Part shown: piece by piece, positions 3,365 through 18,701 of the stretch | Layout: each line of letters opens with the position of its first letter | How positions within the stretch are numbered: the first letter of the stretch is position 1 | DNA from: a virus | Taxonomy: Duplodnaviria > Caudoviricetes | Reading direction: 5' to 3' (one strand) | IMG/VR virus record: IMGVR_UViG_3300033068_001989 | Span: 64,001-128,000 of that record | DNA: 64,000 bases | Translations under genes and position numbers: made by a program | Notes under the pieces: generated by a model | The model's input: the letters and a program-made list of their open reading frames with translations, nothing else | The model's database searches: none | Told to the model about the DNA's origin: nothing

Positions 3365-3372
3365 TATATATC
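3365..3372 (-). promoter_or_regulatory. Putative late promoter GATATATA (representative copy)
   Basis: Same 8-mer at 12810, 16226, 28513, 30364, 37338, 41165, 44831, 47604, 55397, 59109 and 61243, each just upstream of a minus-strand gene. Confidence 0.75.
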
Positions 3373-3393: not shown

Positions 3394-4356
3394 CTATTGG
3401 TTATTTCTTTTGCCCTTGGCGTATAATATTGCTTGCACGTAATTATAAGTATTGTGCTTATCGTCAATTTTACTAAAGTCCTCGCCCCATGGTGATTTAT
3501 TTATAAATTCACCCTTATAGAAAAATTTGCCACCTCCATTATCAACAACACCAGCATTGTGCATTATCTTGTGTCTTTTCCATTCAGTTGTTCCGTAGAA
3601 AGACCCCCAGCTAAAACCAAGCTCTTCCGATATTCTAACCTGATTACCTCTTTTAAGTCCACACCATAAAACAGCCCACATGTCTGCACACCATTTTTGG
3701 ATTGGATTATAAGAGACGAGATGTGATTCATCTAATATTGACCTCTCAGAATCTTCTCTCTCGCTCATATATTTATATAAATCCAGCGAAATGAATTCAA
3801 CTTCCTTCCAAAATTCACTATCTATACCTTTCATTAGATATTGAGCCCCCCCTGAATTTTTATTATTATCGGATACAAGATCAGGATCAATACCTGCAAT
3901 ATTACACATTTCAATGAAAAGATCTTCAGATTTTGATTTTATATAATCGGATCCTATATAAGAAACAGTATCGCTAAGATACCAGATATTATCATTTGTT
4001 AGCTTGTCAAAATCTGGGAGTTCTCTAAATATTATATCAGAATCATGATAAAATATATTTTCATTAGATAATTCCGGATAAGCAGCAAAATGCTTGGAGA
4101 GTATATTTGGTCTAATTACTGGGATATATCCATAATCATTCATTTTATCTTTCTTGTAGAAAAATACTCTAACATACGGATATCTTCCAGCAAGATCCAT
4201 ACCCTCAGCAGAAGGAACACTTTCATAGCCAAAAACTATTTCTATCCAGTTTGGGTTTATTCCATTTTTTATAGCATTATTTATGAAAACCTCAACCTGC
4301 CAATGAAAATAAGGAACATCGGGTTGGGCACAAATAAAAACAACTTTATTCTGCAT
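3394..4356 (-). CDS. GT-A fold glycosyltransferase resembling peptidyl-Ser/Hyp O-glycosyltransferases (SGT1/HPAT-like)
   Basis: YFHWQ near the N terminus, YIPVIRP, DxD motif IFYHDSDIIFR, WCADMWAV and a C-terminal IMHN, in the order recalled for SGT1/HPAT (YFDWQ..Y.xINKP..DxD..W.xEMY..I.HY). Confidence 0.6.
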   Translation of the reverse strand: MQNKVVFICAQPDVPYFHWQVEVFINNAIKNGINPNWIEIVFGYESVPSAEGMDLAGRYPYVRVFFYKKDKMNDYGYIPVIRPNILSKHFAAYPELSNENIFYHDSDIIFRELPDFDKLTNDNIWYLSDTVSYIGSDYIKSKSEDLFIEMCNIAGIDPDLVSDNNKNSGGAQYLMKGIDSEFWKEVEFISLDLYKYMSEREDSERSILDESHLVSYNPIQKWCADMWAVLWCGLKRGNQVRISEELGFSWGSFYGTTEWKRHKIMHNAGVVDNGGGKFFYKGEFINKSPWGEDFSKIDDKHNTYNYVQAILYAKGKRNNQ

Positions 4357-4373
4357 AATCTATATTTTATAGA

Positions 4374-4401
4374 TTATACATTAATAATAAATTAATGTTC
4401 C
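4374..4401 (-). promoter_or_regulatory. Putative ECF-type promoter GGAAC-N17-GTATAA (representative copy)
   Basis: Related bipartite motifs at 16220, 32368, 46539, 56294, 61863 and 63156. Confidence 0.65.
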
Positions 4402-4403
4402 GT

Positions 4404-5324
4404 TTAAATAGTACATTCGACATAATCATTAAATACAGCTTGAACATTAAGATAAATATTAAATGGAGTAGCCGAGATGGTACCATAATTATAGCAGCCA
4501 GGTCCTAGGTATGATCCGCCACACGAACCGGAAGTAATAGTAGGAGGAAGAGTATCCCCGCAATAGTAGAAGTCATTAAGACATCCGTCGGTTGAAGATG
4601 AACCTCTAGAAAAAGTTAAAGGTATCAATGTTCCATTTCTCAGTACACCGACTAAAAGAGTAGAACCGATAAGGAATGCGGTGGATGCCTTTAATGTCAT
4701 CGTTGTTGTTAGAGAACCAGAATATATCGAGGTCCAGTTTGAACCGCCATCCTCACTAGTAACTATCTCAATATCATTCAATCCAGCAGATACACTTCCG
4801 CTTCTTTTAGCGAAGAAGCTAATTAGTGCAGTGGTTGGACAAGGAGAATCATACGTAAGATTAACAGTGTCCCAATACCAAACATCAGTTCCATCCGAAT
4901 AATAACCAGCACCTGCTATCAGACTACAACCAACAGGATATGTCTGGTCAAAAAGCAATGAACCGTTCCATTGGTAGTTACCTGGTGAAGCATAATAATT
5001 ATCACAAGCGGCTTGAGTATCAAATTCGTCAAAGCCGTACAGAATATTTACACACGAGGAAGTTGTTGTAGTTGTCGTCGTACTGGTCGTAGTTGTAGTT
5101 ATTCCGGATATACTTAAAAATATTTCGCTTGTACAGTTTACATTATTAGATTTTACCTTAATTGTTGTGGCAGCATTAGGTACAAGTGTAGAATTATATC
5201 CGCTAATAAGTGAAGCTCTAGATACTCCGGTTTGAAATGGAGAAGCATACGAATCAACATTTGAATATAGATCGAATGGTCCAGTATCTAATCCTGGTGA
5301 TGTCAATGTTATTGTTACTGTCAT
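4404..5324 (-). CDS. Putative virion appendage protein: Ig-like N-domain, Thr-rich linker, Cys-rich C-region with Asp-box
   Basis: ITTTTTSTTTTTTTSS linker; TSEDGGSNW Asp-box; many Cys; directly downstream of a large baseplate gene. Confidence 0.5.
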   Translation of the reverse strand: MTVTITLTSPGLDTGPFDLYSNVDSYASPFQTGVSRASLISGYNSTLVPNAATTIKVKSNNVNCTSEIFLSISGITTTTTSTTTTTTTSSCVNILYGFDEFDTQAACDNYYASPGNYQWNGSLLFDQTYPVGCSLIAGAGYYSDGTDVWYWDTVNLTYDSPCPTTALISFFAKRSGSVSAGLNDIEIVTSEDGGSNWTSIYSGSLTTTMTLKASTAFLIGSTLLVGVLRNGTLIPLTFSRGSSSTDGCLNDFYYCGDTLPPTITSGSCGGSYLGPGCYNYGTISATPFNIYLNVQAVFNDYVECTI

Positions 5325-5333
5325 TTTTTATCT

Positions 5334-8300
5334 TTAAGTTATTGTTATAGTATAATTATATTGGGCATTTCCAGGAGTCACATTAAGGATAGCTTCATAA
5401 TTAGGTGAATTAAATGTGAAATTAACAGGGCCAACAGTAGAACCAGCAGTTAATCTTGCTTGTCTAGAAGTATTAATTCCACTTCCTGGTGTAAATACAA
5501 TTTTAAATGTACCGGTACTAGGAACACTAAAAGTATTATTCATCGGTAAATACACAAAAGTATTATTAGGTATTGATGCATATCCAGTTGAATAATCATT
5601 ATAAGGTACACTATTTATAAATATTGTCCATGTACCAGCTATTAGTGACCCACTATTATTGGTTACTGTAAATGATCCATAAGGATTAATAGTTGTTGTT
5701 GTTGTTGTACTAGATGTTGTTGTTGTACTCGTTGTTGTTGTTGGCGGAACATAAACTACCGCGCTACCACTAGGTAAGCTACAGTCAAAAGGCGAGAATG
5801 TCGTAGTTGTTGTAGTTGTTGTCGTAGGAGCTAATGTTGTTGTAGTAGTTGTACTTGTAGTACTGGTTGTTGTAGTACTGGTTGTTGTAGTACTAGTAGT
5901 TGTTGTACTAGTAGTTGTTGTAACAGGAGCACCACCAGTATATCCAAACTCAGCTAAAAGAAGTCCGCTTCCACCAATCAATGAAGGTGGCGGGTAATGT
6001 GGACCATTAACAAGCCCAATGTTAGCGATATCAACATTTATTGGACCAGTTGTTGTTAGTAACGATCCAGCATCGTCAGGTATCACTCTATAATAAAAAT
6101 TTGTTATGTTTGGATCTCCGTTATTAAGTTGTTCCGCTGCACTAGATAGTGTCAATTGATTATTAAAGGGACCAGTAACTCCATAAAAAACTAATGTTTC
6201 TGGGAATGGATATGTCTCATTCCCTGTTGAAATTGATAGATTGTCAAACCTGAGGAGCGAATGCAACTCGTATCCACCTAGCCAGTCATTATTGAATTCA
6301 TAATCGTACCAAGAGTGTGCATAGCCATCGTCCCATGTACTTTCGTTGAATATCTCCCAATTTAATCTTTTGGTCCCCCAATATTTCAGATTTGGATTTG
6401 GGTAATTTTCCATTTCCTCCTCCCAATAAACATAATAATCAATAGGATTAACACCACCTGTTAATGCAGGGGTAATGGATAACAAATCAATAGATCCGCT
6501 TTCCTCAGCTCTTAATTCAATCCCATTCTGATCTGCACCAAGTTCACTCGGTGCATATATCGTGATTGTAACAGGATCAGCTTGTGGATTTTCACATGAA
6601 GCAAAATAATCAGGATAAGTTCTAAGTGAGTTCACAGAAGATGTTATTTCGTTTGCAGTATTATATAAACTATCTCCAGTTTGACTATATCCAATCAATC
6701 TATTATTAACGTATATCGACAAACTTCCACCACCTAAAACCTTTTGTGAATTGTATATTGACGTATCAACATATAGTTTTTTAGGAGATGTTGTTTGAAG
6801 CAGAACTCCGCTCCATGAAAATTCAAGGGTAATTGGTATATTGAACGAATAAGAATCTATAATTGTTGCTGGCCATCTACCGTTAATCTGAGATATACTT
6901 CCAGTTATTGTTACATAATCATCATCATTAAGATCATGAGGTAAAGTTGTAGTAATCACAGAATATCCATATTGTCCGCTAATACCAGAGATTTCGAAAG
7001 ATTCAATACTAGAAACATTAAGGGTTATCTGGGTAATTGTTATATCTCCATATGCTCCCACCGATGGCTCCGTTGTTCTAACATAAAGATCCTGTCCGTC
7101 GTCAGCCTTATTTCCATATGTTGCAAAATCCAATATCTCGGACGGAATCGTTTTTTTGACTTCGTCTATGGTTGATCCTTCTGCGGGATACTCCCACATC
7201 GAATCATATTCTTTCCATTCTCTATCGACATTTTCCCATAGATAATTTTCAACCTCCCTGTATCTAGTCCAGGAATCAATATCAACAGTTTTAGGATCTA
7301 CGAAAATTGAAGCATTCTTAATAACGCTGGTCTTCGCATTAAAGGCATCATACGTGTTGCATATGACCTGATATTCACCAGTGTAAGGTAAGAAGTGCGC
7401 TAGCTTATAATAGTCCACTATAGATCCTCTAAATTCGAAATGATAAGGTGTACCTGGTTGGGTTGCTGACTTATTAAGTATCCACTCGATTTCCATCATG
7501 TTGGAGAAATCAACATTTTTCCAATTTAGCATCGTATAATTCTGAACAGTGGAAAAAAGCTCGTTCTCGCCGAATGTTCCACTAGTTGAGTCATCTAATG
7601 CAACGTCATATTCACCACTACTATAATAAACAGTTGTAACCGTACCAAATATACCACTAGACTTAACCTTAACCCTATCACCAGGTCTGTACGTAGGAAC
7701 TAATAGAGCATCCCAGTTTATATTTAATTCGTTCCATTCCCATCTATCAGGAGTTAGCTCCAGTATAACTGGCATACCAACAGGGGTATTGTAAATTTTT
7801 CCTGTTACTGGATCAGTATATGCAGGAGGATCAAATCTACCATCACCAAGTTCTAATATCTTTCCATTCTGTTTAAGATCATAGAAATTAGCAATAGCAG
7901 ACAATAACGAATCATTCTGTGCTGGCGTGTAAATCTGCTGAGAATCGAGAGGATTTATTATGTTGCCAAGATCTGATATCGTAGACTGAATTATTTCTAT
8001 GGTACCAGATAACAAAGAAGGGTTATAGTTGGAATAATAATGTATTATCCCCGATGTTTCTGGAGCTATATACCACTCCAAAGAATTACCACCAGTTGCT
8101 CCGTTATTAATTATTCCAGTTGGTACATTATTTTCCCATTGTGAAGGACTACCAGGGAATCCAGAAAAAGATGTAATTGAAAAATCAATTCCATATCCCG
8201 AAGGATCGTTGACATTAAATGTATACGTTTTTCCTGCCTCTAGCTTTAAAATTGGATTATCACCAGTAATTCCATATGGTATATCACCAGAAAAACTAAC

Positions 8301-12418: not shown

Positions 12419-12790
12419 TTATGTTAATTTTAGGGTAACTAATGGACTTAGTCCACCATCAGATTGTATATTAAAATCTAGTGTTGCTATATCTCTTTGA
12501 GTTCCAACATAAAATTTCAATTCATAGGTTCCACCTAATGCTGCAAAAAGAGGAACATAAACCTTAAGATTAAGATCAAGTTCCTTTTTTATGCTATATT
12601 CGGAAAGCTCTAAATTGAAAATAAGATCCTCTAAATTTAAACCAAATTTGGGATCACCTAATACTTCGCCCTTATTAGTAAGGAGAAGCATTTTAAGTTG
12701 ACCAGTACAGATCTCGATTGGATCTGATACCTCTAATTGATAAGGATTGTACTTTGGATCGTTCGGATCTCTATTATAAATTTCTCTCAT
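12419..12790 (-). CDS. gp25: Baseplate wedge subunit gp25-like
   Basis: LLLTNKGEVLGDPKFGLNLEDLIF motif; typical size. Confidence 0.85.
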   Translation of the reverse strand: MREIYNRDPNDPKYNPYQLEVSDPIEICTGQLKMLLLTNKGEVLGDPKFGLNLEDLIFNLELSEYSIKKELDLNLKVYVPLFAALGGTYELKFYVGTQRDIATLDFNIQSDGGLSPLVTLKLT

Positions 12791-12821
12791 AGGGAATTTT
12801 AATTCCCTTTATATATCGAGA

Positions 12822-13625: not shown

Positions 13626-15032
13626 TTAGTAGTTCATATTTCCAAATTTAGAACCACCATATTGATCATTAAGATTCTTAAGTCTGCTATCAGTAACAAA
13701 TCTAACCATCCTAACATCCTCTGGAGCTTTTACTTTCATAGTTTCTTTGCTTACCTCAGAATTATCACCAAGTATTCCTCCTCTAAAAACACCACCAACT
13801 ATCTTACAGTTTATGTTTTTATTTTCACAATCTATAAAGCAATCTTTAAGTTCATTACTAAAATCAACTATAGTAGCCTTTACTTTGGAAGAGATTATTT
13901 TGGTACCACCGAAGATAAATGAATCCTCAACGCAAGATTTTTTTATGGAACAGTTATAAATGTTACAATCTCTAACTGTTGCATTTTTTATATCGCATAA
14001 TATAAGATCAACCCCGCTTATCTCGAATGCTCCTCTACTTCTAGCTTCTTTAACTTGACATCTACCAGTAGTTGTATCATAGTTAAAGTAACAAGAAGTT
14101 ATATTTCCATCTACAATAAGATCAAATATCTTATCTCTTATTGAAAAGAAGTACGTTTTAACATTCTCGTCCCATCCCTTAAGGTCTATAAAAATATGAA
14201 AGTCGGGATAGTTTCTAAAAAATATATCAGGATCACTAAAAGATCTAACAACCTTAGAATACTTATTCATCATTGTCTGAAGTGTAGCAAGATCCTGTTT
14301 GTTATATCCTGAGATTCTTCCGCTTAGTATATCATAAAGATAAAGAACTATATAATCTATTATCTCTCTTATATCTTTAATTTTTTTCTGATAATCTCTA
14401 TTACCAAGATATCTGAATTCTATATAACCCTTCGGTATTTTAGTAAAATTTACTCCATAGTATTTGTCCTCAGGTACTTTGTACATTTTAGGGTCTATGG
14501 TAGTGATGTTCTCTAGTATAGAGAATCTATTTCTAGGAAGTACTTTTTTAACAGATTTGGCATAGACGTTCTTTTCTCTTGATCCAAACTTAGAATATAT
14601 TAGGCCTTCGTCCAGGCCTAATACAAACTTAAGTTTATCTATTGTCTCAATTTTATTCTTTACGTCTCTTCTGTTTTTATCGAAGCTAACAGAAAACTGG
14701 AATGCACATCTATCATTAGTCCATCCGTTTTCATCTATCCATTTTAATATCTTTATTAAAATTGGAATTGCCTCCATATATGGAAGTGGTCCAGTAATTA
14801 ATTCAACCATCTTATTACCACCAGAATAATCAGGTTCTAATTTGAAGTTGTTTGAGTCTACTGGAGTTTTTGAGTGATATTTTTCAGAAACTACAACTTT
14901 TTTTTTGACAAGCTGGGATAATGCTTCGGCAGCCTTACCTTTTAAAAGGTCGGTATAAAATTCAAATTCAAATCCTATTACTGAGGAGCTGAGAGCATTA
15001 AGCTTATCAAAATGTGTTCTATTATCCGGCAT
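13626..15032 (-). CDS. Amidoligase_2 (COOH-NH2 ligase)-like protein with C-terminal beta-helix-like region
   Basis: IGFEFEF, PDYSGG..VELITGPL, KYYGVNF, YIEFRYLG; the usual CGxHxH motif reads CAFQFS. Confidence 0.6.
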   Translation of the reverse strand: MPDNRTHFDKLNALSSSVIGFEFEFYTDLLKGKAAEALSQLVKKKVVVSEKYHSKTPVDSNNFKLEPDYSGGNKMVELITGPLPYMEAIPILIKILKWIDENGWTNDRCAFQFSVSFDKNRRDVKNKIETIDKLKFVLGLDEGLIYSKFGSREKNVYAKSVKKVLPRNRFSILENITTIDPKMYKVPEDKYYGVNFTKIPKGYIEFRYLGNRDYQKKIKDIREIIDYIVLYLYDILSGRISGYNKQDLATLQTMMNKYSKVVRSFSDPDIFFRNYPDFHIFIDLKGWDENVKTYFFSIRDKIFDLIVDGNITSCYFNYDTTTGRCQVKEARSRGAFEISGVDLILCDIKNATVRDCNIYNCSIKKSCVEDSFIFGGTKIISSKVKATIVDFSNELKDCFIDCENKNINCKIVGGVFRGGILGDNSEVSKETMKVKAPEDVRMVRFVTDSRLKNLNDQYGGSKFGNMNY

Positions 15033-16182
15033 CTACTACTTTAACGAATATTTTTCCCGAGATTGTTTCAACCTCGTAGGCAATAACAGTAACATCGTCT
15101 CCGACTCTTATATTATTTCCTTTCTTACCCAGTTTATCCTGAGGTATTAATGCTAAAAGTCCAAGACCCTGTATTTCTACTAAGGCACCATTCTTTCTTT
15201 TGTGTTTAACCTTTGCTTCCATAGGTTCAACAGTTCCTTCGTTTACTTGTGACTCAAGATCCTGTATAATGACATTTCTCTCCAATGGTTGGTCCAGAGT
15301 AAGTGTCAATCTATTATTATCCTTTATCTCCTTAACATAGAATTCAATTTCTATTCCAGGAGAAAGAGTACCTAAACTATTACCTTCGGCAAATTCAGTT
15401 TTATGTATAAGTCCAGTGTAAACATCATCCCATTCAACAAAAACCCCAAAATCGCTGGTTCCTGTAACATATCCCTTATATTTCTTAGTAAGATCAAGTT
15501 CTTGTATTTTAGAATCCATGATTCTGTTAAGATATTTCTTATATGAAACAATAAAGATATCTTTGGCTTCAACATATCCTTCAATCATAACGTGCATTTC
15601 CTTACCTATATAAGATTCGAAATCTGTTATTTTATTTGCAGCTGCTAATGATCCAGGCATAAAACATTTAATCCCTGACAATTCAGCAATATAACCACCT
15701 TTGTTGATACTAACAATCTTAACAAGATAAGCATTGCTTTCCTTCTTAATTTGTTCAAATAGCTCAGCTCTAAGGCTATGTATATAATATTCAATTATAG
15801 AACCAGAGTAGCTTCCATTCATTTTTCTAACTCTAGCCTTAAGTTCCTCGCCTGGATAAAAACCTATTCCTGTTATATTCAATTTCTCTGCATCTCTTCT
15901 TTCTCTTTTGAGATCGATGTAGATTGTTTGTCCAGAATCGGTTTGGGCTAAAGCTTCGTCAGCTTTAACACTTATGATTGTACACGTATAAACTCCTCCA
16001 TCAGAAAGATCCTTAGATCCTCCCTCAAACTTGTCATTACTTGCAAAATAAAGTTCCGCTAGCTCCTCAGCGTAAGGTTCATGGCAATATATTTTAGATC
16101 CTGCCGGGGATTTGACTTTAGAATTGATAGATAAACCATTAGGTATGTCCCATTCAAAATTTTCTAAGTAATCGAGATTCAT
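15022..16182 (-). CDS. rpsA: Ribosomal protein S1-like protein (multiple S1 OB domains)
   Basis: NKGGYIAELSGIKCFMPGSL, GTSDFGVFVEWDDVYTGLIHKTE and NGALVEIQGLGLLALIP are three clear S1 repeats, plus a degenerate N-terminal one. Confidence 0.75.
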   Translation of the reverse strand: MNLDYLENFEWDIPNGLSINSKVKSPAGSKIYCHEPYAEELAELYFASNDKFEGGSKDLSDGGVYTCTIISVKADEALAQTDSGQTIYIDLKRERRDAEKLNITGIGFYPGEELKARVRKMNGSYSGSIIEYYIHSLRAELFEQIKKESNAYLVKIVSINKGGYIAELSGIKCFMPGSLAAANKITDFESYIGKEMHVMIEGYVEAKDIFIVSYKKYLNRIMDSKIQELDLTKKYKGYVTGTSDFGVFVEWDDVYTGLIHKTEFAEGNSLGTLSPGIEIEFYVKEIKDNNRLTLTLDQPLERNVIIQDLESQVNEGTVEPMEAKVKHKRKNGALVEIQGLGLLALIPQDKLGKKGNNIRVGDDVTVIAYEVETISGKIFVKVVDAG

Positions 16183-16265
16183 TTTTTTTAAGTTTTAGAT
16201 GATTATACTTTACTATTAATTATACTATATATCACATCTTTAGTTCCTTTAAATTGCAGTATTTT

Positions 16266-18023: not shown

Positions 18024-18701
18024 TTATTTAGTTTTTGATACTTGGCTTAGATGTTGTGCATCTGTCATCGGTACAATTGGTGTTCCTGAAGGACCAACAC
18101 CGGTTGGGTGTGTATGTGAATTAAAATATGTTAGAAATGTGCTTCCTTTAACCAATTTTTCTACTGCGCCCTCGCCTAACTCGATATTATTACATTTAAC
18201 TATGACCTTGCTCTGCTCCATTCTTATCTCGTCCTCTCCCATCTTAACAAGTATTCTAAGCTCGCCACCATTTTGTGTATCTAATTGTACTTTAGCATCG
18301 CCCAAAGATATAACAAGCCCATTTTTTCTGGTGTATATTATCTTCAATGTTCCTGGCAGTGCTTCGCCATCATAGAGTAAAGCTTGTGTTCCTTCATATG
18401 AATTTTCTTCCTGCAACTCTTTTGCAAGATCCGGAGCTTGCTCCTTGATATAATCATATGTTATCTTATAGTAATTCTCCTCTTCGAAATGTACAGAAAC
18501 AACTGATCCCAATCTGGGTATAGATATATTACCTCCGCCATATTGAGAGCCAAAAGAAAGTCCAGAATTTTGCTCAGCCCATGGTATGTTTTCAACAGCA
18601 AGATCATCAAATAATCCAAAAACTGCAACTCTTGCTCTCCCTTGTTTAAGTGGGTCATTAATATCTACTATTTCACCAAGGTAGGTTTTTTCACTAGGCA
18701 T
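18024..18701 (-). CDS. gp5: Baseplate central spike, gp5 OB-fold / P2 gpV-like
   Basis: YLGEIVDINDPLKQGRARV..IPWA..IPRLGSVVSVHF OB-fold; C-terminal HTH (HxH) metal-binding tip; no lysozyme domain. Confidence 0.8.
   Translation of the reverse strand: MPSEKTYLGEIVDINDPLKQGRARVAVFGLFDDLAVENIPWAEQNSGLSFGSQYGGGNISIPRLGSVVSVHFEEENYYKITYDYIKEQAPDLAKELQEENSYEGTQALLYDGEALPGTLKIIYTRKNGLVISLGDAKVQLDTQNGGELRILVKMGEDEIRMEQSKVIVKCNNIELGEGAVEKLVKGSTFLTYFNSHTHPTGVGPSGTPIVPMTDAQHLSQVSKTK

Follow-up and report, generated by a model that had tools for sequence, protein, structure and literature searches.

Why should a phage keep a glycosyltransferase gene among the genes for its own baseplate? The question is raised by a 64,000-nucleotide stretch of DNA (the window), positions 64,001 to 128,000 of the Caudoviricetes record IMGVR_UViG_3300033068_001989 in IMG/VR, in which the gene for a 320-amino-acid DxD protein, P0001, lies directly after two genes on the same strand, those for P0003 and P0002, that encode long threonine/serine runs (coordinates in Table 1). 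An earlier note on this DNA had read P0001 as a protein-acting glycosyltransferase directed at these runs, and both the gene order and the motifs on which it relied, YFHWQ, YIPVIRP, YHDSD, WCADMW and IMHN in that order, are present as described. We consider that the best explanation as a whole, with a probability of about 0.7, is that P0001 glycosylates Thr/Ser tracts of the phage's own virion proteins. The predicted fold, the gene order, the coupled presence and absence of enzyme and tracts in unrelated lineages, and the peptide clusters in which bacterial relatives are found all support this reading.

The tracts are confined to the presumed acceptors. With a threshold of at least 12 Ser or Thr in 15 residues, P0002 and P0003 are the only tract-bearing open reading frames (ORFs) in the window, and they are also the only ones in the whole 207,751-bp record with a threshold of at least 11 in 15 (558 six-frame ORFs of at least 50 amino acids). 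Mixed synonymous codons (ACA, ACT, ACC, ACG, AGT and TCN) encode the runs, which are therefore maintained as protein sequence and not as a DNA microsatellite. The locus combines a phage-encoded glycosyltransferase with Ser/Thr-rich segments on structural proteins. The core of P0003 (residues 1 to ~1403) is common to all relatives, and the part after residue 1404 is an optional Thr-stalk module. The structural model of P0002 contains an Fn3-like sandwich as the N-terminal domain and a beta-rich C-terminal part including a sandwich domain at residues ~163–298; its low-confidence segment, residues 74–88, falls largely within the Thr run. At least 381 proteins share the 72-residue N-terminal domain of P0002 (MTV.ITLT..G.DTGPFDLYS...), and in the aligned members (18 and 44 sequences) this domain is followed directly by the Thr run and then by unrelated C-terminal parts, which often end in Cys. 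The family looks like a group of modular stalked decoration proteins, in which the N-terminal domain might serve as the anchor on the particle, with the variable domain presented at the end of a glycosylated stalk.

Coupling between the enzyme and Thr-tract genes was found in the lineage of the window, in phages resembling Enterococcus phage phiFL1A, and in further phages. We gathered a first set of 80 IMG/VR loci whose encoded relatives are 39–92% identical to P0001; a same-strand Thr/Ser-tract ORF is present in 66 of them, usually as the gene ending 4–80 nucleotides before the enzyme gene. When genes were counted by rank in 72 non-identical IMG/VR loci, a tract was present in 53 of 71 genes (75%) at rank −1, counted from the enzyme gene, and in 18% at rank −2, compared with 8 of 493 genes (1.6%) at rank 4 or further and 3 of 435 in all downstream genes. 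The enrichment of rank −1 over rank ≥4 corresponds to a Fisher p of 6e-50, a value that is not corrected for relatedness. The tract-carrying proteins span 131–2231 amino acids, indicating that the tract is shared, not one particular protein.

A second set, anchored on the baseplate wedge gene, comprised 59 loci of the window's own lineage, whose contigs reach ~430 kb in relatives of this record and which is therefore a lineage of jumbo phages. All 22 enzyme-bearing loci have a P0003 orthologue with Thr runs and a variable C-terminal domain (1546–1839 amino acids), whereas none of the 19 full-length P0003 orthologues from enzyme-less loci has a tract. Most of these enzyme-less orthologues are ~1386–1417 amino acids long and align to about residue 1401–1404 of P0003, just before the first run; an enzyme-less subgroup of 1720 amino acids has a different extension, also without a tract. 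Two loci carry tracts but no enzyme, and both end before the expected position of the enzyme gene. In most enzyme-less relatives, a homologue of P0004, the gene downstream of P0001, comes directly after the short P0003 orthologue, which delimits the optional cassette: the enzyme gene, at most one P0002-like gene, and the Thr stalk together with the domain at its far end. In the window it covers ~2.5 kb (3394–5930), nearly the same span as the one given in the earlier note. On a tree of the 1380 residues in common, obtained by a quick maximum-likelihood search, the tract state must change at least four times, and the enzyme matches each change; two sister loci (L131 and L133) differ in both.

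The same coupling recurs in a second, unrelated lineage. Among 20 loci with homologues of the phiFL1A major tail protein, the enzyme gene directly follows the tail gene in nine, and all nine have poly-Thr C-terminal tails on the tail-tube protein and on a protein of ~325–331 amino acids from the head-gene block, which is probably the capsid protein. Thr tails are absent from all 11 enzyme-less loci, whose tail proteins are otherwise 65–88% identical. This observation bears on the proposal that the enzyme acts on something other than protein, such as a host envelope polysaccharide, teichoic acid, lipid or the phage DNA, and merely travels with Thr-linker fibre modules in a mobile cassette. Among the known roles of phage glycosyltransferases are DNA glucosylation and serotype conversion, as summarised in PMC12619734; Thr-rich linkers are common in modular fibre proteins, and Thr runs are absent from most loci of the bacterial homologues. 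However, in the siphophages the enzyme gene lies either between the genes for the tail tube and the tail chaperone or immediately behind a likely capsid gene, the runs form short tails at the C-termini of the major tail and likely capsid proteins and not fibre linkers, and tails and enzyme are lost together from otherwise closely similar tail-tube proteins. The bacterial homologues, moreover, occur in peptide-modification clusters and not in polysaccharide clusters. Because of the gene position and the coupled loss of the Thr tails, we rate a DNA- or polysaccharide-acting enzyme as unlikely.

A comparable arrangement is found in further deposited phages. Phage VPE25 has the enzyme and a Thr tail on its major tail protein. 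In Lacticaseibacillus phage R9.1 a clear Thr run ends the major tail protein, and a shorter one ends the product of the gene before the enzyme, probably the capsid protein. Clostridium phage phiCTP1 has Thr tails on a small head protein and on the tail tube, Lactobacillus phage Iacchus has two small Thr-tailed proteins, Staphylococcus phage RQ1 has a Thr tail on the major tail protein, and Chryseobacterium phage MA9V-3 has Thr runs in two upstream genes. The RQ1 major tail protein (L087:7223-7925) is annotated as two overlapping ORFs that meet within the poly-Thr run, which could be due to an error in sequencing the repeat, or to programmed frameshifting that yields both tailed and untailed forms.

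What kind of enzyme is P0001? It matches PHROG 4417, a group of function unknown, over its full length (E 3.3e-64; residues 7–312 on profile positions 3–290 of 293), and its family is large, with 3507 sequence matches at 90% clustering and 824 clusters at 50% identity. No Pfam family was found for P0001 at E up to 1, and a search of PDB chain sequences gave no match. The family profile searched against the PDB returned only TAL-effector repeats, which had no passing stretch and were treated as spurious, and a non-significant match to GNPTAB. The AlphaFold2 model is of very high confidence (predicted local distance difference test 97, predicted template modelling score 0.93) and shows a Rossmann-like alpha/beta/alpha GT-A fold with a GT8-like three-dimensional structure; its first strand starts at residue 5, leaving no room for a membrane anchor. 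The closest solved structures are retaining GT-A glycosyltransferases, namely AgtA of family GT77 (match score 14.8), glycogenin (14.6), LgtC (14.3), the catalytic domain of UGGT (14.3), the C-terminal domain of WbbM (13.8), LARGE1 (13.4) and GlyE (13.4), and Foldseek was in agreement. GlyE belongs to the serine-rich-repeat adhesin pathway. By its predicted fold, P0001 is a GT-A glycosyltransferase, and probably a retaining one.

Five residues are invariant in 57 diverse aligned members: D105 and D107 (of HDSD), H266 (of HNAG), Q220 and K281. P0001 has both the DxD motif and the C-terminal His that serves as the third metal ligand in many retaining GT-A enzymes. D105, D107 and H266 could be spatially equivalent to the metal site of GT8 enzymes. 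P0001 shares its fold with the retaining GT-A enzymes of CAZy families GT8, GT77 and GT24 (glycogenin, LgtC, AgtA, UGGT, LARGE1 and GlyE), but sequence identity in these whole-fold comparisons is only 6–11%, and the Pfam model Glyco_transf_8 matches neither P0001 nor any of the 57 members.

The earlier note had likened the motif order to the plant and algal hydroxyproline arabinosyltransferase HPAT (GT95) and the peptidyl-serine galactosyltransferase SGT1/SERGT1 (GT96). In concept the comparison holds, as these enzymes likewise glycosylate hydroxyls of repetitive, extended structural proteins; plant HPAT and SGT1 are, however, membrane-anchored enzymes of the secretory pathway acting on hydroxyproline or Ser, whereas P0001 is predicted to be soluble and its tracts are Thr. 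Membership of GT95 was rejected at the level of hidden Markov models: the HPAT model PF23452 does not match P0001, reaches one of the 57 relatives at E 0.23 and none of 10 distant relatives, and has no match on the homologous genes in five bacterial genomes. The sole lead to HPAT was a neighbour cluster of viral proteins from the Atlas language model, in which 10% of the members carry PF23452. Among solved structures, the matches of P0001 include no enzyme of GT95 or GT96. A published classifier predicts GT95 to be GT-A-like and GT96 to have a novel fold, noting that the latter lacks a crystal structure (PMC8476585).

The fold also invites the alternative that the enzyme only elongates a glycan whose first sugar is put on the Thr runs by an enzyme of the host or by a different one of the phage. 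Several of the closest folds (AgtA, UGGT, LARGE1, GlyE and XXYLT1) belong to enzymes that lengthen a glycan already in place, fusion of the domain to a second glycosyltransferase domain is frequent, and the record of the window carries two GT2-type genes elsewhere. However, no GT2-type or GT4-type gene was found in five complete genomes of enzyme-bearing phages, so that the enzyme can be the only phage-borne, and hence the initiating, transferase. The hosts span Bacteroidota and Firmicutes, making a shared host initiator for cytoplasmic poly-Thr improbable, and direct recognition of the tract by the enzyme would be the simplest account of their strict coupling. We regard elongation alone as unlikely. 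Still more doubtful is the transfer to the Thr runs of a group other than a plain sugar, either a sugar-1-phosphate, by Stealth/GNPT-like phosphoglycosylation, or a nucleotidyl group, an idea to which we assign very little weight.

Bacterial homologues offer another view of the acceptor that P0001 might use. Longer homologues have the domain fused to Glyco_transf_7C, GT2, GT6, GT32 and GT25 glycosyltransferase domains (the GT25 match being weak and sub-threshold) or to methyltransferase and radical SAM/SPASM domains. Two-domain homologues in Chitinophaga, Pedobacter, Sphingobacterium and Mucilaginibacter adjoin genes for LanB (lantibiotic dehydratase), LanC-like proteins, C39-peptidase ABC exporters and radical SAM proteins. 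Large Thr-tract proteins were not found in these bacterial two-domain loci; at least 6 of 32 of them contain, within 8 kb, a small precursor-like ORF that has a Thr run in its core and a leader ending in Gly-Gly. One such ORF has 13 consecutive Thr, three share the leader MKKK.K..ELK.QSF.TEL...TAKGG and three share a KITTTT core motif. These precursors independently point to peptide hydroxyls as the acceptor. The setting of LanB, LanC, C39-ABC and radical SAM genes with Gly-Gly-leader precursors, some with Thr runs, is shared with glycosyltransferases that tailor ribosomally synthesised and post-translationally modified peptides (RiPPs), but the phage enzyme has a single domain and would act on large virion proteins instead of exported peptides. 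We know of no product described for these bacterial clusters. On a broader scale, we hold it to be an even bet that a bare Thr run serves as a portable glycosylation tag, read by one family of small soluble enzymes shared by phages of at least two bacterial phyla (Bacteroidota and Firmicutes) and by bacterial peptide clusters, and that cytoplasmic mucin-type glycosylation of virions is widespread in phages and not peculiar to mycobacteriophages.

In the mechanism that we propose, P0001 would be a soluble, cytoplasmic, metal-dependent GT-A enzyme of an uncharacterised family that transfers a sugar from a nucleotide-sugar to the hydroxyls of consecutive Thr, and some Ser, in virion proteins. The acceptors in this phage would be the optional C-terminal stalk of P0003 and P0002, with its Fn3-like domain, Thr run and beta-sandwich part. 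Once glycosylated, the Thr runs might become stiff, hydrophilic, mucin-like stalks that resist proteases and keep small distal domains at a distance from the baseplate, and the Thr-run module or modules together with the enzyme gene would constitute a single optional cassette. We infer the acceptor, the sugar, the retention of configuration and the biological benefit. Several points weigh against the proposal. The assignment of the acceptor rests wholly on association. The best-matching folds mostly extend glycans or lipo-oligosaccharides and do not place a first sugar onto a peptide, glycogenin excepted, and the record holds two GT2 genes elsewhere. At the threshold used, 18 of the 71 genes at rank −1 have no tract. 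The compared loci are related, so their p-values overstate independence, and the tree is the result of a quick search, not of a finished careful one. Finally, 26 of the 32 bacterial two-domain loci lack a Thr-run peptide within 8 kb, so the Thr run may not be a universal acceptor.

Virion O-glycosylation has a precedent, reportedly described for mycobacteriophages by Freeman et al. in 2023 (Cell Host Microbe). In these phages, a glycosyltransferase encoded by the phage modifies structural proteins of the same virus, the glycans being carried by C-terminal extensions of capsid and tail-tube subunits, as summarised in PMC12619734. Their layout resembles that of the Firmicutes phages carrying the P0001 family, in which the tail tube and a likely capsid or head protein bear Thr tails. 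The P0001 family, however, occurs in Bacteroidota-type jumbo phages and Firmicutes phages and has a far wider host range. In contrast to the mycobacteriophage enzyme set, P0001 is apparently a single enzyme, with no Pfam model and a PHROG of unknown function. The presumed acceptor further differs in being a nearly pure Thr run, which in the window forms internal stalks of baseplate-associated proteins. We therefore regard the cassette as a well-supported candidate for a virion O-glycosylation system, functionally analogous to the mycobacteriophage one. As far as we searched the literature, virion glycosylation has been demonstrated solely in mycobacteriophages, and nothing on the P0001 family turned up.

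The family with its Thr-run signature occurs in phages of Enterococcus, Staphylococcus, Lactobacillus, Lactococcus, Clostridium and Chryseobacterium as well as in large aquatic phages. If the proposal is true, many therapeutic and dairy phages bear an unrecognised sugar coat, with possible consequences for stability, adsorption, immune recognition and structure determination. Two parts, a Thr tag and the enzyme, could then also be enough to glycosylate any protein in bacteria, which would make them a compact aid to glycoengineering. The existence of cultivable carriers makes the hypothesis directly testable.

The source record is linear, with 34% G+C and an estimated completeness of 73%, and its minus strand carries nearly all genes; no deposited phage has DNA near-identical to the window. 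PHROG matches of nearby ORFs identify the neighbourhood of P0001, P0002 and P0003 as a baseplate module, with wedge and hub genes upstream of P0003 (Table 1).

Table 1. Positions of the cassette, its neighbours and the precursor-like ORFs of bacterial loci; plain numbers refer to the window, numbers after a locus name to that locus.
Feature	Position	Strand	Remarks
P0004 gene	1464..3344	−	626 amino acids; downstream edge of the cassette
P0001 gene	3394..4356	−	predicted soluble GT-A glycosyltransferase of 320 amino acids; PHROG 4417, no Pfam family
Promoter-like GGAAC-N17-GTATAAT	4373..4401	−	putative; in the 47-nucleotide gap before the P0001 gene
P0002 gene	4404..5324	−	306-amino-acid stalk protein, presumed acceptor
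P0002 Thr/Ser run	5046..5114	−	residues 71–93
P0003 gene	5334..10142	−	1602-amino-acid baseplate-associated protein
P0003 distal C-terminal domain	5337..5681	−	115 amino acids, past the Thr stalk; putative domain
P0003 second Thr/Ser run	5682..5750	−	residues 1465–1487
P0003 first Thr/Ser run	5799..5930	−	residues 1405–1448; starts where enzyme-less orthologues end
Baseplate wedge gene	10685-12409		matches PHROGs 219 and 6
Wedge subunit gene	12419-12790		PHROG match
Baseplate hub gene	18024-18701		PHROG match
Thr-run precursor-like ORF	L199:2253-2498		Gly-Gly leader, Bacteroidota lanthipeptide-type cluster; the ORF with 13 consecutive Thr
Thr-run precursor-like ORF	L190:7280-7549	−	as above, Gly-Gly leader and cluster type
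Thr-run precursor-like ORF	L216:7608-7856		as above, Gly-Gly leader and cluster type
Thr-run precursor-like ORF	L219:7615-7863		as above, Gly-Gly leader and cluster type
Thr-run precursor-like ORF	L227:3948-4175		as above, Gly-Gly leader and cluster type

The earlier note had also assigned the enzyme gene a promoter of the extracytoplasmic function (ECF) type and the surrounding structural genes a late motif, and had suggested that the enzyme would be made before its substrates. The element before the enzyme gene does exist. GGAAC-N17-GTATAAT occurs just four times on the record's coding strand, and most relatives of the jumbo lineage show a GAAAC/GGAAC...TATAAT pattern at the corresponding place. 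The −10 part of the element looks sigma-70-like; the ECF label found no support. The late motif, GATATATA, stands before the P0004 gene (3372-3365, 28 nucleotides upstream) and before a gp25-like gene, but not directly before the P0003 or P0002 genes. It is strongly strand-biased in the record, with 42 copies on the coding strand and four on the opposite one, and 27 of the 42 lie within 90 nucleotides upstream of a gene start. Minus-strand sites in the window include 3365-3372, 12810-12817 and 16226-16233, and the distance to the gene start is mostly 9–30 nucleotides. The motif looks like a real promoter element and would fit a phage late promoter. An AT-rich palindrome, AATCTATA AAA TATAGATT (4352-4372, minus strand), reaches to the A of the enzyme gene's ATG and shares nucleotides with the end of the GTATAAT box; on transcripts that read through, it could hide the site of translation initiation.

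The two GT2-type genes elsewhere in the record (G000:C1:163102-163479, L167, and G000:C1:15635-15910, L168; open frames of 233 and 419 amino acids) could encode enzymes that elongate the glycan or that have a different target. Three other minus-strand genes of the window have domain matches of their own. Within the baseplate/tail block, a 386-amino-acid protein (15022-16182) has an S1 RNA-binding domain (E 1e-11) with weaker S1/OB-like matches, and amid the baseplate genes a 468-amino-acid protein (13626-15032) has a weak match to Amidoligase_2 (E 3e-4, just under the cut-off). The ORF at 1-1443, which runs off the end of the window with 481 amino acids visible, matches Reg_prop beta-propeller repeats and is probably another distal tail or fibre protein.

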